DNA of 64,000 bases from an uncultured Candidatus Saccharibacteria bacterium. GTDB taxonomy: Bacteria > Patescibacteriota > Minisyncoccia > Phycocordibacterales > Phycocordibacteraceae. The DNA lies in NCBI GenBank assembly GCA_964398815.1, contig CAYNNZ010000004.1, positions 8,074 to 72,073 of the forward strand. The letters are read 5' to 3'. This document shows, piece after piece, positions 53,970 to 61,478 of this stretch. The position numbers were made by a program, and so were the translations under genes. The notes beneath the pieces were generated by a model. The model saw only the letters and a program-made list of their open reading frames with translations, did no database searches and was not told the origin of the DNA. Numbering within the stretch: position 1 is the first letter of the stretch; each line of letters starts with the position of its first letter.

Positions 53970-55520
53970 TTACTCGCCAGTGCGCTCGACGAACTGGTCG
54001 AGCTTCGCGCGAAGGTCCTTCTCGATGGTCTCGTTGATTTCGCGCGTGGTGCGGATTGCCGCGAGCACGTCATTCGCTTCGCGCGAAAGATACTCCTGCA
54101 GGCGCTCCTCTGCCTGACTTGTCTTCTCCGGCGGGAATCCATCGAAGTAGCCGTTCACTGCAGCGAAGATGACTGCTGCTTCCATCTCAAACGGAAGCGG
54201 CTTGCCGTTTGGCTGCTTGAGCATCTCCGTCATGCGGCGGCCAGAGTCAATCTGCTTCTTCGTGTTCTCATCGAGGTCGGATGCGAACTGCATGAACGCC
54301 TCAAGTTCGCGGAACTGTGCGAGCTCGAGCTTAATCTTTCCGGACACCTTCTTCATAGCCTTCGTCTGTGCAGCAGAACCCACGCGAGACACGGAGTTAC
54401 CAACGTCGATAGCCGGACGGAGTCCTTGGTTGAAGAGGTTGGTGAGCACGAATATCTGTCCGTCCGTGATGGAAATCACGTTCGTCGGAATGTAGGTCGA
54501 GATGTCGCCTTCCTGCGTCTCGATGATAGGAAGTGCGGTGAGCGAACCACCACCCTTTTCCTTAGAGAGCTTTGCGGCGCGCTCGAGGAGGCGGGAGTGG
54601 AGGTAGAAGATGTCTCCCGGGTATGCCTCGCGGCCCGGCGGGCGACGAAGAAGGAGCGACATCTGGCGGTATGCCACGGCCTGCTTGGAGAGGTCGTCGT
54701 AGATGACGAGTGCGTCCTTGCCCTGCTCCATGAAGTGCTCGCCGATAGCAGCACCTGCGAACGGTGCGAGGTACTGGAAGGCAGCCGGAGAGGATGCCGG
54801 TGCAGTGACGACGATGGTGTACTCCATTGCGCCCTTGTCTGCGAGCTCTGCAACGAGCTTCGCGGTCTTCGACTCCTTCTGGCCGATAGCAACGTACACA
54901 CAGATAGGACGATTCTCAGCCGGCTCAGACTTCTGGTTGATGATGGTGTCTATCGCGATGGTGGTCTTACCCGTTCCGCGGTCACCAATGATGAGCTCGC
55001 GCTGGCCGCGACCAATTGGCACCATGGCGTCGATAGCCTTAATGCCCGTGTGAAGCGGCGTGTTCACCGGAGAGCGGTCCATAACGCCGTATGCTTCGGA
55101 CTCGATAGGACGAATCTTGTCGGCACCCGTCGGGCCCTTGCCGTCTACCGGCTCGCCGAGCGGATTCACCACGCGACCGACGAGCGAGTCACCTACTGGG
55201 ATGGAGAGTAGGCGGCCGACGCGACGCACGAGCATGCCCTCATAGACGCGAGCATTGTCTCCGAGCACGACGGCACGCACGCCGTCTTCCTCGAGGTTGA
55301 GCACGAGGCCGTAGATGGGGTCAGCATCTTTGAGCGCAGCCTCGAGAGTGCGGTCGAACGTAGGATCAAAGAGCACCATCTCGTTCATGATGGCTCCCTC
55401 CAGTCCGTCTATCTCCGCGATACCGTCTCCAGTAGCGCGCACAATACCTGTCTCCTGCACGTCGCCTTTCGGGGCGAAGCCTGCGATTTCACTCTCGATG
55501 CGCTTGATAATGCTCTCCAT
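53970..55520 (-). CDS. atpA: F1Fo ATP synthase alpha subunit
   Basis: GDRGTGKT Walker A; alpha-family C-terminus; 516 aa. Confidence 0.97.
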   Translation of the reverse strand: MESIIKRIESEIAGFAPKGDVQETGIVRATGDGIAEIDGLEGAIMNEMVLFDPTFDRTLEAALKDADPIYGLVLNLEEDGVRAVVLGDNARVYEGMLVRRVGRLLSIPVGDSLVGRVVNPLGEPVDGKGPTGADKIRPIESEAYGVMDRSPVNTPLHTGIKAIDAMVPIGRGQRELIIGDRGTGKTTIAIDTIINQKSEPAENRPICVYVAIGQKESKTAKLVAELADKGAMEYTIVVTAPASSPAAFQYLAPFAGAAIGEHFMEQGKDALVIYDDLSKQAVAYRQMSLLLRRPPGREAYPGDIFYLHSRLLERAAKLSKEKGGGSLTALPIIETQEGDISTYIPTNVISITDGQIFVLTNLFNQGLRPAIDVGNSVSRVGSAAQTKAMKKVSGKIKLELAQFRELEAFMQFASDLDENTKKQIDSGRRMTEMLKQPNGKPLPFEMEAAVIFAAVNGYFDGFPPEKTSQAEERLQEYLSREANDVLAAIRTTREINETIEKDLRAKLDQFVERTGE

Positions 55521-55534
55521 AATGTGCGTGGTTA

Positions 55535-55900
55535 TTAAGTAGTTACCTTTCGATAGAGCTCAATGAGCCCCTGCTTGGCGCTCCTATCTATGAGCGTCCC
55601 TCCTGTGCGTGCGCGCCATCCGCGGATGAGCGCCGGGTTCACGGTCGCGTGCGCGACCTCGATACCCTCTGCCTTTGCAGCCTTTACGGCGGCTGCCGCC
55701 TCCTTCTCGCTCGCTGCTTCTACAGACGGGGCGAGTTTTGCCTTGCGGGCTTCCAGGACGCGCAGATGGCGCAGGATTCCGGGGAGTAGCTTTACGCGTC
55801 CGGTCTCGGTGAGGTGCTTCGTCAATTCAGCGACAAGCTTCTTCTCGTCGCTTCCTTGTGCGAGCAGGTTCTCGATTGCCTTTGCGTAGAGCTTCTCCAT
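55535..55900 (-). CDS. atpH: F1Fo ATP synthase delta subunit (minimal, 121 aa)
   Basis: N-terminal YAKA motif and C-terminal ...LIRGWRARTGGTLIDRSAKQGL resemble the OSCP/delta termini. Position between atpF and atpA. Confidence 0.65.
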   Translation of the reverse strand: MEKLYAKAIENLLAQGSDEKKLVAELTKHLTETGRVKLLPGILRHLRVLEARKAKLAPSVEAASEKEAAAAVKAAKAEGIEVAHATVNPALIRGWRARTGGTLIDRSAKQGLIELYRKVTT

Positions 55901-55902
55901 GA

Positions 55903-56346
55903 CTATTTATCGCGGAGCACCTTCTCTGCGGCGAGCACGGCCATGCGCGCGATTTCCTTTTCGCTTTCGCGAAGCGTGCGAGCCGCCTCTTCCTTTGCGC
56001 GAGCCTCAGCATCCTTCTCGACGCTTGCTGCACGCGCTTCTGCCTCCTTCACGATGCGAGTGCGCTCCTGCTGCGCGCTTTCGCGTGCGGTAGCAACGAT
56101 GCCCTCTGCTTCGCTTTCTGCACCCTGCACGACCTTCGCCGCCTCGTCGTCTGCCTTTGCAGCCTTCGCCTCAGCCTCTTCGGCTGCACGAACACCCGCT
56201 GCAATCTTTTCTTTGCGCGCCTCGAGCGTAGCCATCACTGGCTTATAGAGGAGGTACCAGAGCACCGTCATCAGCACGCCGAAGTTCACCAGCTGCGCGA
56301 TGAGGAGCGGTACTTGGAGACCGAATGCTGCGAAGAGGTCAGACAT
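55903..56346 (-). CDS. atpF: F1Fo ATP synthase subunit b
   Basis: Single N-terminal TM followed by a long Ala/Glu/Lys-rich helix; 147 aa. Confidence 0.8.
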   Translation of the reverse strand: MSDLFAAFGLQVPLLIAQLVNFGVLMTVLWYLLYKPVMATLEARKEKIAAGVRAAEEAEAKAAKADDEAAKVVQGAESEAEGIVATARESAQQERTRIVKEAEARAASVEKDAEARAKEEAARTLRESEKEIARMAVLAAEKVLRDK

Positions 56347-56495
56347 AGAATTGGTAAGTGAGGTTTAGTTAGAGAGTGCGATTACAAAGTTTCTTATGCA
56401 AGGCATGGGTGAACGATGAGCGGAGACGTATGTGCTATACGGCGAAGCGAAGCGTTGGGACCCATAACGTAGCAGAAGGAACTTTTAATCGTGCT

Positions 56496-56732
<237 letters not shown>

Positions 56733-56789
56733 TTACTTTTTAATTTTCGAACTCCATCCCGGAGCCGCATGAAGGCACTAGCCAAATGG

Positions 56790-57596
56790 CTAATGCGCCT
56801 CGTGCGGGTCAGTGACAGACAGCTTGATGAAGAACATGGTGAGCATAGCGAACACCAAGGCCTGAATCGCGCCGATGAACATCTCGAAGCCCATGAGCGG
56901 CACCGGAAGCAGATACGGCAGGAAGTAGCCGGCGACCAGAATCATCACCTCGCCGGCAAAGATGTTGCCGAAGAGACGGAACGAGAACGAGACGAGGCGG
57001 GAGAGATTCGAGACAACTTCGATGAGGCCCACGACGAAATTGACCGGTGAAGTAACGTTAACAAACCGGCCGACATACTTCCACCATCCGAGTACCGCGA
57101 TGCCGGTGATTTCGATGACGAAGAAGGAGATGAATGCGAGTGCGAGCGTGAAGTTCAGGTCTGCCGCAGGCGCGCGGAAGAGCGGCTCGAACTCCGTTCC
57201 GTGGAAAAGACCGATGGAGCCGATACCCGGAAGGAACGCGAGCTCATTCCCTACGAGGATAAAGAGGAAGATGGTCGCGATGAGCGGGAAGAAGCGCTTC
57301 GCGAGTGCTTCGCTCTCGAAGGTCTCCATGACATAGCCGTAAGCACCTTCGAATACCCATTCCACCGCTGCCTGCAGCTTGCCCGGAATCATTTTGAGCG
57401 TTCCGCGGAACCAGATAGCGAAAATGATGAGCACCGCCATGACGAGCCAGGTCATGAGGAGCGAGTTCGTAATTGGGAAGCCGAACAGGTGCCCAAGCAC
57501 TTCGGCTTTGAGCGATACGTGGATAGGGCTTTCGTGCACCGCCTCGGTGGCGGTTGCGATAGCGGTCGTCGAAGCTGCGACTAGCTCAACGTCCAT
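56790..57596 (-). CDS. atpB: F1Fo ATP synthase subunit a
   Basis: Polytopic protein with the conserved Arg region (…NLSRLVSFSFRLFGNIFAG…). Start taken at ATG 57596; the track start at 57668 is TTG. Confidence 0.85.
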   Translation of the reverse strand: MDVELVAASTTAIATATEAVHESPIHVSLKAEVLGHLFGFPITNSLLMTWLVMAVLIIFAIWFRGTLKMIPGKLQAAVEWVFEGAYGYVMETFESEALAKRFFPLIATIFLFILVGNELAFLPGIGSIGLFHGTEFEPLFRAPAADLNFTLALAFISFFVIEITGIAVLGWWKYVGRFVNVTSPVNFVVGLIEVVSNLSRLVSFSFRLFGNIFAGEVMILVAGYFLPYLLPVPLMGFEMFIGAIQALVFAMLTMFFIKLSVTDPHEAH

Positions 57597-57704
57597 ACGA
57601 AAAAGAGACCCGTCTGGGCCGATACCCCTGTCATAGGGCCATTCTAGCAAAGGAGTCGCTATCCACAAAGAACATCAGGCCCGTAGGCGGCATGTGTCCT
57701 AATT

Positions 57705-57733
57705 TTGACGCGGGAAATAAAACATGGTAGATT
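57705..57733 (+). promoter_or_regulatory. Putative sigma-70-type promoter for cspA (TTGACG-17-TAGATT), very short leader
   Basis: Sequence inspection; the ATG is about 9 nt downstream of the -10 box. Confidence 0.35.
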
Positions 57734-57742
57734 CATTACATT

Positions 57743-57946
57743 ATGCAGCGCGGCAAGATTTCCCAGCTGGGCGACCGCGAATCCGGCTTCATCAAGCGGG
57801 ATGGCGCGAAGGAGGACCTCTTCTTCCATTCTGATGCGCTTCAGGGCATCACCTTCCGCGAGCTCAAGAAGGGGGACAAAGTGGTCTACACCGAAATCAA
57901 GAGCATGAAGGGTCCCTACGCGACTAAGGTCCTCAAGGACAAATAA
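57743..57946 (+). CDS. cspA: Cold-shock protein (CspA family)
   Basis: GKISQLGDRESGFIKRDGAKEDLFFHSDAL...GDKVVY: RNP1/RNP2 motifs of the cold-shock domain; 67 aa. Confidence 0.9.
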   Translation: MQRGKISQLGDRESGFIKRDGAKEDLFFHSDALQGITFRELKKGDKVVYTEIKSMKGPYATKVLKDK

Positions 57947-57949
57947 CAA

Positions 57950-57976
57950 AACAGCCCCTCGGGGCTGTTTTGCTTT
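57950..57976. terminator. Bidirectional rho-independent terminator (cspA and the convergent membrane-protein gene)
   Basis: AACAGCCCC-TC-GGGGCTGTTTTGCTTTT. Confidence 0.65.
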
Positions 57977-57979
57977 TGG

Positions 57980-58519
57980 CTACTGCTTTGGCTTTTTGAG
58001 CGCTTCGAGATCAGCGAGGAGTTTCTGCACATCGCTTGAGAGCTGCTCGAGAAGTGCCGCCTCATCGAGTGCGGCTTTCTCCCGTTTCTCTTTCCGCTGC
58101 TTCTGCTGCGTCACTTTCTGTTCCGCCTTCTCCTCTTCGCTCATTTCCTCGACATCTTCCTGAATCTCGTCGATGTCCTCACTGATTTCCTCGATGTCTT
58201 CCTGAATGTCCTCGACATCCTCCCCGAGCTCTTCGACATCTTCCTGAATTTCGTCGATGTCCTCCTCGACTTCGCGCAGCTGCTCGGTGTTACGGTTGAC
58301 CGCAATCTGGATGAAAATAGCCATATATATCGCCTCGAGCGAGACGACGGTGGTGAGGACCAGCAGCATCATCTGCCACTCCACGATGCCGAGCAGGGAG
58401 AGCAGGAAACACGCCACGAAAAAAATCGAGTGCAAAATCAAGGACGCTACCGATCCGATGGATGCGATAGCGGCCTCGATGAATGGAGTTTTCGGGCGCT
58501 CCTTTCTCATCAATCGCAC
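57980..58519 (-). CDS. Membrane protein with C-terminal acidic coiled-coil tandem repeats
   Basis: Two TM helices followed by (E/D)DI(D/E)EIQEDVEE repeats (DNA 58150..58273), then a Lys-rich tail. Confidence 0.6.
   Translation of the reverse strand: MRLMRKERPKTPFIEAAIASIGSVASLILHSIFFVACFLLSLLGIVEWQMMLLVLTTVVSLEAIYMAIFIQIAVNRNTEQLREVEEDIDEIQEDVEELGEDVEDIQEDIEEISEDIDEIQEDVEEMSEEEKAEQKVTQQKQRKEKREKAALDEAALLEQLSSDVQKLLADLEALKKPKQ
58150..58273. repeat. Imperfect 36-nt tandem repeat (about 3.5 copies) within the coding sequence
   Basis: CTCGACATCTTCCTGAAT(C/G/T)TCGTCGATGTCCTC... repeated; encodes EDIDEIQEDVEE units. Confidence 0.6.
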
Positions 58520-58734
58520 CGTATCTCTGTAACGCGTGTTTGTCTACCACTTCACTGATTGCGACAGTGCATAACATCAAACAAGTCGACCATGAGCGCG
58601 CATTCTGGAAAGTTTGAGTGCGAGGCGCGGGCAATCGAAGAGCGTAGGCGTATTCATATACGACGGAGCGAGGAGATGGGCGTCCGCAACGACGCAATCG
58701 AGCTTTGCAGTTGCGTGCGCTTTACTGTTAAAAT

Positions 58735-59802
58735 TTGCACATGCCGGGCCCCCAAAGGACCTTAATGCCCCATACGTTTGGGCCTCAAAAGAAAAAACCG
58801 AGCTCGCAAGTTCGGAAAGCTTTGGTGTCTACCGGACCGGTTGTACTCTCCACGCTCGTGATGGCAATCGCGCTCTTCTCGCTTCCTTCTATTCTTTCGT
58901 TCGACCTACGCGCCGATGAGTTATCGCAGCGTGCGAAGGCGCCATTCCCCGTATCGGTCGACCCTGCACGCAAAGTCATTGTCGAGAGTCCTACTGCTGA
59001 CGCACTGCTGCGCGAGGGTACAAACCCCGCCCTTTCTGCAGCTGCTACACAGGCGAGTACCTTCATCGCATGGCTCGCCTCGAAGATTGCTGACTTCCCT
59101 GTCTATCGCCTGCTTGCAGGTGCGGACGTGAATTTCGTGACCATCCAGCCAGGGTACCGACAGGAACAGGTTGCTTCTGCGTTCGCGAGCAGTCTCGGCT
59201 GGAGTGTGAAGGAGCGCCAGGCATTCCTTGCAAACGTAAAATCGACGCCACCAACGCTTTCCGAAGGAGAGTTCGTGCCGGGCACGTATGAGGTGCATGG
59301 AGCAATGACGCCTACGGAGGTGCAGAACATGCTGAACGACCGCTTTACCGCGGAAATATTGAATCGCTACAGCACCACGACTTCAGAACAGGTTCCGCTC
59401 ATGGATGCGCTCACCATCGCTTCGCTCATCGAGCGCGAGACTGGCGGCACCGACGATATGCGTATGATTTCCGGAATTATCTGGAATCGTCTCTTTGTGA
59501 ATATGAACCTGCAGATTGATGCGACGCTGCAGTATGCGAAGTCCGCAAATACCAAATCATGGTGGCCACCCGTGAAGCCAGCCGATAAATACATAAAGTC
59601 CGCATATAACACCTATGCGCATCCGGGCCTCCCGCCAGGACCTATTGCGAGCCCTTCAGTTGCTGCGGTTATCGCTGCACTCAATCCGAAGCCGACGGAC
59701 TGCATCTTCTATTTCCATGACAAGTATGGAAACTTCCACTGCTCCGAGAATTACTCCGAGCACGTGAAGTCACTTAAAAAGTATTACGGTCAGGGGAAAT
59801 AA
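58735..59802 (+). CDS. MltG/YceG-family endolytic transglycosylase, second divergent paralog
   Basis: TM segment near the N-terminus; C-terminal YNTYAHPGLPPGPIASPSVAAVIAALNP and catalytic-region ASLIERETG. 355 aa. Confidence 0.8.
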   Translation: MHMPGPQRTLMPHTFGPQKKKPSSQVRKALVSTGPVVLSTLVMAIALFSLPSILSFDLRADELSQRAKAPFPVSVDPARKVIVESPTADALLREGTNPALSAAATQASTFIAWLASKIADFPVYRLLAGADVNFVTIQPGYRQEQVASAFASSLGWSVKERQAFLANVKSTPPTLSEGEFVPGTYEVHGAMTPTEVQNMLNDRFTAEILNRYSTTTSEQVPLMDALTIASLIERETGGTDDMRMISGIIWNRLFVNMNLQIDATLQYAKSANTKSWWPPVKPADKYIKSAYNTYAHPGLPPGPIASPSVAAVIAALNPKPTDCIFYFHDKYGNFHCSENYSEHVKSLKKYYGQGK

Positions 59803-59805
59803 GTA

Positions 59806-59831
59806 GAAGCGGTCACCCGGATGACCGCTTC
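59806..59831. terminator. Terminator-like hairpin (10-bp perfect stem) after the MltG paralog
   Basis: GAAGCGGTCA-CCCGGA-TGACCGCTTC. Confidence 0.5.
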
Positions 59832-60052
59832 ACCACTTTGACTTCGCGTCTGCGGATGAACTTATCCATACCCGCAACGTGATAGCTCGGGATGCCCTCG
59901 GGATCATCTTCTTGATTGCGTCCCTTCACGCGCACCTGCGTTCCGATAAGTTCGCAGACACACCCCGGATTGTCGCCGTGGACCTGAGCTTCGCAGCTGT
60001 GAATGACCACGTCCTCGCCGATGATCTTGTCATCGTATGTCCAGCACAGCAT
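59813..60052 (-). CDS. Possible small protein (79 aa from ATG)
   Basis: MLCWTYDDKIIGEDVVIHSCEAQVHGDNPGCVCELIGTQVRVKGRNQEDDPEGIPSYHVAGMDKFIRRREVKVVKRSSG. Its stop lies inside the terminator hairpin. Confidence 0.3.
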   Translation of the reverse strand: MLCWTYDDKIIGEDVVIHSCEAQVHGDNPGCVCELIGTQVRVKGRNQEDDPEGIPSYHVAGMDKFIRRREVKVVKRSSG

Positions 60053-60097
60053 GGCCTTCCCCTTCAATTATCACAACGTGCCTGTTGTGATAATCTC

Positions 60098-60290
60098 ACA
60101 CCATTCGGATGTAAGCATACTTACCTCTGACATTCGGGCCGTATCCATTGCTTGCATGGATACGTTCCCTCGTTCCGGAGAAACCGTACAAGCATACTTG
60201 TCCGATTCTCCTACTCTCGGGCCGTATGTAGGCATACGACCTTTCATTCCGCTCGAATATCAAAAGCTTTTTTGATATTCTCGCTACATT
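60098..60290 (+). repeat. Tandem degenerate tRNA-like units (two decayed copies, about 77-83 nt period) preceding tRNA-Pro(GGG)
   Basis: TCGGGCCGTAT (acceptor plus start of D-arm) recurs at 60134, 60217 and 60290 (the intact tRNA). AAGCATACTT hairpins at 60113 and 60190. D-arm-like palindromes TATCCAT-TGCTTGC-ATGGATA and GTATG-TAGG-CATAC. T-arm remnant GTCCGATTCTCC. Confidence 0.5.
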
Positions 60291-60361
60291 CGGGCCGTAG
60301 TATACCGGTAGTACGCGTCCATGGGGTGGATGTAGACCGAGTTCGATTCTCGGCGGCCCGA
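60291..60361 (+). tRNA. tRNA-Pro (anticodon GGG)
   Basis: Hand-folded: acceptor CGGGCCG/CGGCCCG, D-arm GTAT/GTAC, anticodon stem CGTCC/GGATG with loop ATGGGGT, T-arm CCGAG-TTCGATT-CTCGG, discriminator A; no encoded CCA. Confidence 0.85.
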
Positions 60362-60365
60362 CAAA

Positions 60366-60773
60366 TCACATTTTGAAAACTTTGGTCGCAACGATGTAGG
60401 TGAGCCCTGAAGTGACGGCAGTCATAATTGTTCCCCACGCAATATCGATAAGCGCACCATAGAGCGGCCAGCCAGTGAGCGTCGCAATATTCGTGAGGTC
60501 ATACGTCATGTATGCAGTCGCGCCGAGAACGGCACCCCATATAACGGCTGTGGATAACGAACGGAGGGCGAGTGCGGGTTTGAGCACGAAGAAAATGAGC
60601 GAGAGCGAGTAGACGACGTAAAAGATTCCAGCAGCCCACAGGACCGGGTCAGGACGGAAGAACGCACCGAACTGCGCATGATAGAACCCGCTTGCGATGA
60701 CGCCTATCCAGCTCGCGTCGAGCGCGACCGAAATAGGAAGTGCGAGACAAAAAAGTTTGAGATACGTTCTCAT
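60366..60773 (-). CDS. Hypothetical 4-TM membrane protein (135 aa)
   Basis: Hydrophobic ORF directly downstream of the TspO gene. Confidence 0.55.
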   Translation of the reverse strand: MRTYLKLFCLALPISVALDASWIGVIASGFYHAQFGAFFRPDPVLWAAGIFYVVYSLSLIFFVLKPALALRSLSTAVIWGAVLGATAYMTYDLTNIATLTGWPLYGALIDIAWGTIMTAVTSGLTYIVATKVFKM

Positions 60774-61404: not shown

Positions 61405-61478
61405 CGGGGCGTAGTATACCGGTAGTACGCACGCTTCGGGTGCGTGAAGACCGAGTTCGATTCTCGGCGTCCCGACCA
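61405..61478 (+). tRNA. tRNA-Pro (anticodon CGG), CCA encoded
   Basis: Near-identical backbone to the GGG isoacceptor: acceptor CGGGGCG/CGTCCCG (G-U), anticodon stem CACGC/GCGTG with loop TTCGGGT, T-arm CCGAG-TTCGATT-CTCGG, then ACCA. Confidence 0.85.

Follow-up and report, generated by a model that had tools for sequence, protein, structure and literature searches.

The window (the whole 64-kb stretch of DNA that was analysed) contains an intact tRNA-Pro(GGG) gene in a neighbourhood that includes genes for YceG, ORF79, DUF2177, TspO, SWIB and DUF1428 and ATP synthase genes, with Pterin_4a and Ddl following past the window end. The tRNA gene does not encode CCA and ends 3 nt short of the stop codon of DUF2177, which converges on it. 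The gap ahead of it (60056–60290), between ORF79 on the minus strand and the tRNA on the plus strand, is occupied by an array in which copies of the 5' end of the tRNA gene, here called heads, alternate with hairpins. The features are listed below in window coordinates; related loci carry L numbers.

59813–60052, minus strand: ORF79, a gene for a small Cys/His protein, with transcription directed away from the array
60067–60094, no strand assigned: spacer hairpin of the H type, an inverted repeat forming a perfect 11-bp palindrome with a 6-nt loop
60102–60113, plus strand: degenerate head copy 0, CATTCGGATGTA, made up of the leader end, a decayed acceptor strand and TA
60111–60124, plus strand: small hairpin GTAAGCATACTTAC, containing the first AAGCATACTT (from direct repeats and folding)
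60125–60144, plus strand: head copy A, leader-like CTCTGACAT followed by TCGGGCCGTAT (core 60134–60144), an exact 10-mer match
60140–60164, plus strand: unit A hairpin 1, CGTATCCAT pairing with ATGGATACG, an inverted repeat with 9/9 bp perfect
60165–60176, plus strand: unit A linker TTCCCTCGTTCC, with a motif, CCTCGTT, common to the A units of L017 and L053
60177–60211, plus strand: unit A hairpin 2, GGAGAA...TTCTCC (from direct repeats)
60208–60227, plus strand: head copy B, CTCCTACTC followed by TCGGGCCGTAT (core 60217–60227), an exact 10-mer match
60220–60241, plus strand: unit B hairpin 1, GGCCGTATG pairing with CATACGACC, an inverted repeat with 8/9 pairs
60242–60254, plus strand: unit B linker TTTCATTCCGCTC, from orthology to unit B of L017
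60255–60280, plus strand: unit B hairpin 2 of the spacer H type, GAATATCAAAA pairing with TTTTGATATTC, an inverted repeat with 11 bp perfect
60281–60290, plus strand: proximal 5' leader TCGCTACATT, part of the third copy of the 20-nt repeat
60291–60362, plus strand: tRNA-Pro(GGG), intact, found by ARAGORN and by the Rfam tRNA model (49.1 bits)

The 10-mer TCGGGCCGTA, made up of the final base of the leader, the 7-nt 5' strand of the acceptor stem, U8 and A9, has exact copies at 60134, 60217 and 60290 and at no other site of the 64-kb window (other matches are mismatched and lie elsewhere), and the third of these copies is the start of the intact tRNA-Pro(GGG). Together with about ten leader bases it makes up a 20-nt repeat family, CTCnnACnTTCGGGCCGTAt, which a repeat search placed at 60125, 60208 and 60281. 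The original prediction had named the same three head sites, and these stand; its spacing of 77–83 nt does not, as the measured distances are 83 and 73 nt. Counting the degenerate copy, three exact heads and one decayed head lie within 190 nt, with none elsewhere in the 64 kb. None of the other three tRNAs of the window comes with head copies, and the leader occurs in the window just once. The observation of repeated tRNA-Pro heads is confirmed as real and highly non-random. Behind each of the two perfect upstream heads comes a hairpin whose 5' arm begins within CGTA of tRNA origin, and then a pyrimidine-rich linker, another hairpin and a leader-like tail. Tandem Repeats Finder reported no repeat for the region because the units share just about 20 nt and this architecture.

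In unit A, the arms of hairpin 1 (60140–60148 with 60156–60164) begin on the 5' side within the tRNA-derived CGTA, and the stretch TCCAT...GGAT aligns with the tRNA anticodon arm. Hairpin 2 of the same unit (predicted fold energy −13.5 kcal/mol) includes the second AAGCATACTT (60190–60199) and a T-loop-like GTCCGATTCTC (60200–60210). In unit B, the arms of hairpin 1 (60220–60228 with 60233–60241) contain one C.A mismatch, with a 3' arm that is a perfect complement of the L017-type head GGTCG. Perfect hairpins had been reported after both upstream heads, and this holds for A but not for B. Likewise, a AAGCATACTT hairpin was said to precede each unit; it does so at 60113 and 60190, ahead of heads A and B, but the tRNA itself is preceded by another hairpin, at 60255–60280. 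That hairpin is paralogous to the one at 60067–60094 (predicted fold energy −12.6 kcal/mol) by a direct repeat (60082–60108 versus 60267–60293, 78% over 27 nt), and the degenerate head CATTCGGATGTA forms the 3' end of the 27-nt repeat linking the two. The region folds far more stably than shuffled sequence on both strands (z −6.65 and −6.29), which bears out its description as a highly structured repeat region.

ARAGORN detected only the gene at 60291–60362 in the region and no tRNA in 60056–60290, where the Rfam tRNA model also gave no match even at E <= 10. An inverted-repeat search found no 3' acceptor strand for any unit, the sole CGGCCCGA in the region being the tRNA's own at 60354–60361. 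Functional tRNA genes in the upstream units were rejected on these grounds, with no cloverleaf detected and no 3' acceptor strand. The proposal of decayed tRNA-like units left by tandem duplication is right in substance, in that tRNA-derived partial copies precede an intact gene. The units are not recognizable pseudo-tRNAs, given that both tRNA searches were blank and the tRNA similarity of the unit A body is not significant (p > 0.1).

Judged by their sequence, the upstream units are nevertheless tRNA-derived, their heads being identical to the gene. For the B type, the case extends to the body: unit B of L017 is colinear with tRNA-Pro through GACC-AGTTC---TCTCGGCG, the variable region and the T arm (z 3.9, p 0.002), and the window's unit B is homologous to it throughout the body (z 5.1). 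In addition, nhmmer matched the window leader to the L017 array (E 1.7e-5). The linker of the window's unit B, whose tRNA alignment is not significant by itself, is likely a relic of the T loop, the T stem and the start of the 3' acceptor strand (TTCGATTCTCGGCG). For A-type bodies, resemblance to the tRNA does not reach significance (p > 0.1), and the same applies to the window's unit B taken alone, so colinearity with the gene beyond short motifs covers 10–20 nt in the heads and, through the L017 orthologue, the B-type units, but not the A-type bodies. The T-arm-like GTCCGATTCTC reported for unit A does match the T loop at 10/11 positions, but this is not significant alone (p 0.11–0.15), and the element is absent from the orthologous units of other genomes. 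A decayed tRNA-Pro(CGG) was considered as a source of the A-type units, as the L017 linker CTCGTTCGGGCGAG resembles a CGG anticodon arm (loop TTCGGGT); the alignments were not significant, which makes this source a tentative candidate at most.

A MAFFT alignment of all units from three genomes with tRNA-Pro shows one shared junction, A9 joined to T28. Positions 1–9 run directly onto TCCAT, a stretch covering the 3' end of the 5' anticodon-stem strand and the first bases of the loop, and the D arm (positions 10–27) is missing. This single junction suggests that all units may stem from one founder copy. On the same alignment, hairpin 1 appears to be an anticodon-arm relic, extended and perfected by CGTA pairing, and not a D-arm relic. 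The D-arm-like character first ascribed to these hairpins is therefore the poorer fit overall, but for unit B of L017 a D-arm alignment is about as good as the anticodon-arm alignment.

A search pattern built on the D arm and T arm of the tRNA picked up 15 loci in genomes and 17 in metagenomes, and every record that names an organism assigns it to Patescibacteria. Homologous arrays before tRNA-Pro(GGG) were found in two other Patescibacteria lineages. First, L017 (with L030, L051 and L052 from the same species) carries at least four units in the order A'B'A'B' upstream of tRNA-Pro(GGG), including a nearly perfect 194-nt duplication, and all its units bear their own genome's head, CGGGTCG. Second, L053 and L054 carry one A-type unit followed by a tRNA-Pro(GGG) 5' half, which in L053 keeps the GGG anticodon loop, and L053 also has a 3' part. 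The A-type unit is present in three lineages whose flanking-gene proteins are just 61–64% identical. A covariance model of the unit head, run over 369 kb of related loci, found only the training arrays and L030, and Rfam matched only tRNAs in six related loci.

Looser remains are more widespread. In L011, two 5' halves are each interrupted by an insert after position 9 and retain a GGG anticodon loop, and two 3' fragments lie downstream of tRNA-Pro. Single decayed 5' copies occur in L024, L032 and L033 (mini pseudo-tRNAs in the latter two), and L022 and L036 have 3' fragments downstream of tRNA-Pro. In L010, units of about 79 nt, comprising the leader and 5' half of tRNA-Leu(CAA), are present in 3–4 copies; in a mini-survey of 116 tRNAs, similar debris flanked this tRNA-Leu(CAA) in L010 and tRNA-Ala in L046, L044 and L045. 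Of about 23 tRNA-Pro(GGG) lineages sampled, 6 showed clear 5' relics upstream. Across loci, 5' pieces lie upstream and 3' pieces downstream of tRNA genes, a pattern that random short duplications would produce if one intact gene must survive.

The array varies in copy number, with 2–3 copies in the window, at least 4 in L017, 1 in L053 and 0 in L042 and L044. Even within one species, 2 of the 3 differences between L017 and L030 in 2190 nt sit in 164 nt of array (p ~0.016), one of them being a 1-nt deletion in an L030 head, and the contigs of this species break at the array. Contigs encoding an identical DUF2177 protein all came from the same strain with identical leaders and gave no comparative signal for that reason; strain SNPs were too few and too clustered for measuring constraint on the leader.

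Relatives share the surrounding gene order, in which YceG is followed by DUF2177 and TspO in convergent orientation. Within it, ORF79, the array and the tRNA together form a lineage-specific insertion. Just 2 nt separate YceG from DUF2177 in the closest relative (YceG 77% identity), which has no tRNA, ORF79 or array between them. L042 and L044 have tRNA-Pro(GGG) at the locus on the opposite strand and without head copies, and L046 retains only a short remnant resembling the tRNA 3' end. The nearest relatives, which lack the array, have atpB identities of 67–86%, compared with 61% for the more distant, array-bearing L017. This makes the distribution patchy, requiring either several losses or transfer of an array-plus-tRNA cassette.

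ORF79 starts with an ATG at 60052, preceded by a Shine-Dalgarno-like AAGGGGAAGG. A word-index protein search returned only the protein itself, and an exhaustive search yielded 38 homologues, in which C20, H25, C31 and C33 are invariant (best match 61% identity, E 3e-22). It had no family match in Pfam, PHROG, NCBIfam or PDB and is absent from all related loci. We considered whether ORF79 could be a recombinase or excisionase; with no family match, and with a predicted structure (pLDDT 85) that weakly resembles an SH3-like barrel instead, this assignment was rejected.

We favor, with a probability of roughly 0.55, the explanation that serial tandem duplications of part of the gene, spanning the tRNA 5' boundary, left the array behind as relics, in the manner of plastid trnF arrays. 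The 235 bp before tRNA-Pro(GGG) are best explained as stacked partial copies of the gene together with the short spacer upstream of it, all dead and with internal deletions. Each upstream copy retains the last leader bases and tRNA positions 1–9 and then skips to the hairpin alignable with the anticodon arm; unit B goes on with the T-arm relic and the spacer hairpin, in that order. Such duplications could have arisen by slipped-strand or template-switch events, or by unequal exchange between the repeats of about 20 nt that comprise leader and head. They would have spanned the 5' gene boundary repeatedly, with the survivors being the outcomes with one intact gene. As only those outcomes survive, 5' pieces accumulate upstream, and 3' pieces downstream of other tRNA genes. 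The array would have no function of its own; its transcript would probably form a long leader, rich in hairpins, and be cut off by RNase P. The 20-nt homology block may allow short-patch exchange that keeps the heads identical to the gene, and the local hairpins may persist by tying up heads that might otherwise mispair with the 3' acceptor strand of the tRNA. Three points sit uneasily with an origin as relics: neutral relics should decay, yet the heads are perfect and the hairpins are kept, which is not well explained; the A-type unit has persisted in three lineages despite the low identity of their flanking-gene proteins; and the body of unit A is not demonstrably tRNA-derived on its sequence.

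Among known systems, the closest analogue of the window's array is the plastid trnF pseudogene array. In Brassicaceae, Solanaceae and Asteraceae, 1–7 copies of 32–73 bp lie directly 5' of the functional trnF(GAA) gene, with the anticodon, D and T domains conserved and the acceptor strands rarely kept (PMC3786074 and references therein). Their origin is ascribed to duplication and recombination, and they have no known function (PMC3786074). Both systems have partial copies of a few tens of bp in tandem directly 5' of a single functional gene (in the window, a degenerate copy at 60102 and copies at 60134 and 60217, before the gene at 60291), with some tRNA domains kept, others lost, and copy number varying between related lineages. 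Unlike the plastid arrays, the window's array best keeps the 5' acceptor strand with U8 and A9, belongs to a free bacterial genome (Patescibacteria), and has long perfect hairpins that are maintained between genera. We found no bacterial report of such upstream tRNA arrays in the literature searched, and by this analogy we regard them as a bacterial parallel to the plastid trnF pseudogene arrays. L011 and L053 also recall archaeal split or intron-containing tRNAs, as they have a 5' half and a 3' part with an insert closed by a long leader-trailer helix. In contrast to the archaeal cases, their insert is a complete tRNA gene itself, and the window has nothing similar; the split tRNAs of L011 and L053 look like disrupted pseudogenes.

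The preservation of heads and hairpins raises the possibility of a functional, structured 5' leader, in which the heads act as cis-acting decoys for the tRNA 3' acceptor strand and the hairpins set decoy availability. Such a leader would gate folding of tRNA-Pro(GGG), and hence RNase P processing, and would be inherited with the tRNA in several Patescibacteria lineages. All four hairpin positions are kept between genera while their sequences differ, and across three lineages the hairpins hold their place through compensatory changes. For hairpin 1, standard pairs fill 100% of cells in 6 homologous units, with 2 pairs changed on both sides; in a control that is weak given the few related sequences, 13/500 shuffles reached the observed score. 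The spacer hairpin of unit B is also kept in its L017 orthologue CACAGAACGAAAAAGTTTTTTCGCTCTGTG, with about five both-sided changes. This covariation evidence is weak because there are 2–3 independent sequences per unit type. The original prediction had named a conserved functional RNA in relatives as the finding that would speak against decayed tRNAs, and the comparison goes part of the way, with homologous units in two other lineages and compensatory hairpin changes.

The heads also track the gene. Position 5 is C in the window and T in L017, in the tRNA and all its upstream copies alike (heads CGGGCCG and CGGGTCG, respectively). Both genomes have an identical 3' arm, CATACGACC, in the unit B hairpin, and it fits the T5 form alone; the window's heads therefore changed together with the gene. 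In this way heads co-vary with the acceptor stem of their own genome. The heads of L011 and L053 differ from their genes, but the difference still permits G.U pairing. Nearest-neighbour folding of the window predicts that the 3' acceptor strand pairs with a decoy head (P 0.79–0.90) and hardly with the true 5' strand (~0.01), with a similar decoy preference modelled for L017; the competing folds are 1–4 kcal/mol apart, a difference that the model's error can cover, and neither tertiary structure nor co-transcriptional folding is taken into account. The stability of the leader relative to shuffles (z −6.65) fits the same picture. Direct repeats flanking hairpins are expected to delete easily, and the persistence of the repeats hints at selection.

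Against a decoy function are the patchy distribution, with the nearest relatives managing without an array, and the looseness of the array itself (1 to at least 4 copies, the 1-nt deletion in an L030 head, enriched polymorphism). Rfam 15 has no family match in the leader (60056–60290) at E <= 10. No sigma-70-like promoter was detected upstream of tRNA-Pro(GGG), making co-transcription of the leader with the tRNA only putative. We consider a decoy leader unlikely overall, but give it some weight because perfect heads and maintained hairpins are poorly explained by neutral decay.

A miniature non-autonomous transposable element that inserts at the tRNA start, leaving the heads as 9–10 bp target-site duplications, is quite improbable. 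It would account for the perfect direct-repeat heads that flank otherwise dissimilar bodies, for the divergence from the tRNA exactly after position 9 in every upstream copy, and for the patchy distribution among genomes. It also draws on L046, where tRNA-Ala is preceded by a unit with this architecture and with motifs in common (CCCTCGYTC, CCTCACTC) that is flanked by GGGCCTATA and whose body resembles the window's unit A (z 3.9). However, the unit ends have no terminal inverted repeats as read from the sequence, no further copies exist in the 64-kb window or, beyond the arrays, in about 369 kb of related loci, and no transposase gene is nearby. The colinear tRNA relics in unit B also count against insertion, as does the 3' arm of hairpin 1, which complements target-specific sequence (ATACG for Pro, TATAG for Ala) and so is not explained by a mobile element of fixed sequence.

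More doubtful still are att-site scars, that is, repeated att cores from tandem integrations that carried the tRNA 5' part and whose element interiors were later deleted; this predicts an attP that includes the leader and TCGGGNCGTA and adjoins an integrase gene. Genes for tRNAs are classic integration targets, the locus is a hypervariable, lineage-specific insertion with the tRNA absent or inverted in relatives, and the 3' fragments downstream of tRNA-Pro in L011, L022 and L036 are attR-like, if at short range. On the other hand, tRNA-targeting integrases are said, by a rule that goes back to Williams in 2002, to duplicate the 3' part of the gene, and here it is the 5' part that is duplicated. 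The spacing is 73–83 bp and not kilobases, and the unit bodies hold further colinear tRNA relics, which are unexpected in an att scar. The flanks hold no gene for an integrase, transposase or other recombinase out to about 6 kb in each direction, with several of the ORFs there lacking a family match. ORF79 weakly resembles an SH3-like small protein and not a recombinase or excisionase, and the check for integrase or phage genes beyond the window end that the original prediction proposed gave Pterin_4a, Ddl and no recombinase. The D-arm 20-mer of the tRNA was absent from viral contigs, the unit-motif pattern gave 48 matches in them (about chance level by our estimate) with none above 18 bits by the unit model, and the stretch 59813–60290 had no match in phage or plasmid collections. 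With no link to an integrase, transposase, phage or plasmid, the att-scar alternative of the original prediction is unlikely. Fragments of tRNA genes from mobile-element integration are common in prokaryotes, and in examples from PMC9897764 about 9–23 kb of element DNA lies between the fragment and the gene (PMC9897764). Such fragments share with our locus partial tRNA direct repeats beside an intact copy and variability between relatives; they differ in that the window has 5' heads 73–83 bp apart and no element genes, which sets the array apart from the usual prokaryotic tRNA fragments of this origin. Finally, a TIGR-Tas guide RNA array, defined by a neighbouring tas gene that encodes a Nop domain and by units of about 36 nt bearing box C/D motifs (10.64898/2026.09.09.750476), was rejected because no Nop-domain protein is nearby and the units are 73–83 nt long and start with a tRNA head copy.

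If the leader does act as a decoy, it would be a self-derived regulatory leader for a tRNA, testable by RNase P assays, and a new kind of tRNA cis-regulation made from the tRNA's own pieces. If, as we favor, the array consists of duplication relics, tRNA genes in reduced genomes would shed partial copies on both sides at a high rate; these relics would break assemblies and would mark a rearrangement hot spot, at which the tRNA is inverted or absent in close relatives.

Partial tRNA copies similar to those in front of tRNA-Pro(GGG) in the window also adjoin tRNA genes at loci from other Patescibacteria (L-numbers), in the following arrangements:

L046, 3211-3310, minus strand: single unit before tRNA-Ala(GGC), with the architecture of window unit A
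L044, 560-815, minus strand, and L045, 7790-8027, minus strand: region downstream of tRNA-Ala
L010, 2270-2585 and 2835-2860: tandem units and a 3' fragment at tRNA-Leu(CAA)
L053, 3640-3960, minus strand, and L011, 2690-3170, plus strand: tRNA nested within a tRNA

In the L046 unit, one hairpin separates the head GGGCCTATA from the motif CCCTCGCTCGG that comes after it, and a second lies between that motif and the following CCTCACTC; the unit's Ala-specific head is complementary to TATAG, the 3' arm of the first hairpin, and a 3'-end fragment (AGGTCCAC) immediately precedes it. In L044 and L045, the terminator palindrome 3' of tRNA-Ala reaches into the tRNA 3' end. Next comes a conserved element resembling tRNA-Ala, in which a hairpin lies between GGACCGTAAGCA and GCGTCAGGATTCGAA, and a variable hairpin insert between GCGTCAGGATTCGAA and CTTGTACGGTCCAC; this element matches no Rfam family and has its acceptor stem closed by an A3-U70 pair. 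Before tRNA-Leu(CAA) of L010 lie 3-4 tandem units of ~79 nt, each made up of the leader and a decayed 5' half, in a stretch that is partly N-masked, and a 3' fragment with CCA lies ~175-185 nt 3' of the tRNA. At the nested loci, an intact tRNA-Pro, whose acceptor stem is lengthened by inverted repeats of 11-14 bp on both sides, lies between two pieces of another tRNA-Pro copy, a 3' part and a 5' half that includes the GGG anticodon loop. No further tRNA-Pro(GGG) was found within the 6.6 kb of L053 examined. The gap between YceG and DUF2177, the genes bounding ORF79, the array and the tRNA in the window, is hypervariable in relatives: that of L046 (5042-5224) holds a tRNA-Pro 3'-end-like remnant (GTCGGAGCATCCCGACAG), and that of L045 (5048-5633; 586 nt) contains an orphan 138-aa ORF.

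Across 55017-60011 of the window, strain differences in a set of 10 conspecific contigs are tightly clustered (55017-55110, 57120-57754, 58070-58394 and 59839-60011), the pattern expected from recombination tracts. Contigs of another species (that of L017) stop at the 5' end of tRNA-Pro(GGG) or at most ~20 nt upstream (L051, 3053-3126; L052, 1954-2046), which is consistent with short-read assembly breakage at the repeat array.

The tRNA-Pro(GGG) of the window does not encode CCA (60291-60368), and tRNA-Pro(CGG) at 61405 does. The former has no terminator, and 3 nt separate its end from the stop codon of DUF2177, which is transcribed convergently, so that any read-through would run antisense to that gene. 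Whole-sequence Rfam runs at the gathering threshold missed tRNA-Pro(GGG) in the window (60291-60362), L017 (530-601) and L011 (2953-3024); it scored 49 bits once a short stretch was searched. The miss is presumably a speed-filter effect.

Two further features lie in or next to the array:

Window, 59813-60052, minus strand: ORF79, a small protein gene
Window, 60067-60094: perfect 11-bp palindrome, ATTATCACAAC-N6-GTTGTGATAAT

ORF79 is a genuine small protein of an undescribed family. An exhaustive search yielded 38 homologues, in which a C-H-C-C pattern (CEAxxHGDNxGCVC) is invariant, and the predicted structure (pLDDT 85) bears only a weak resemblance to an SH3-like barrel. It had no match in Pfam, PHROG, NCBIfam or the PDB, and it is missing at every related locus examined. 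One of the strain-SNP clusters falls wholly inside the gene (5 SNPs, 3 amino-acid changes). The palindrome lies 15 nt 5' of the ORF79 start, adjoining its Shine-Dalgarno sequence, and could, besides belonging to the array, act as an operator or 5'-UTR hairpin for ORF79.
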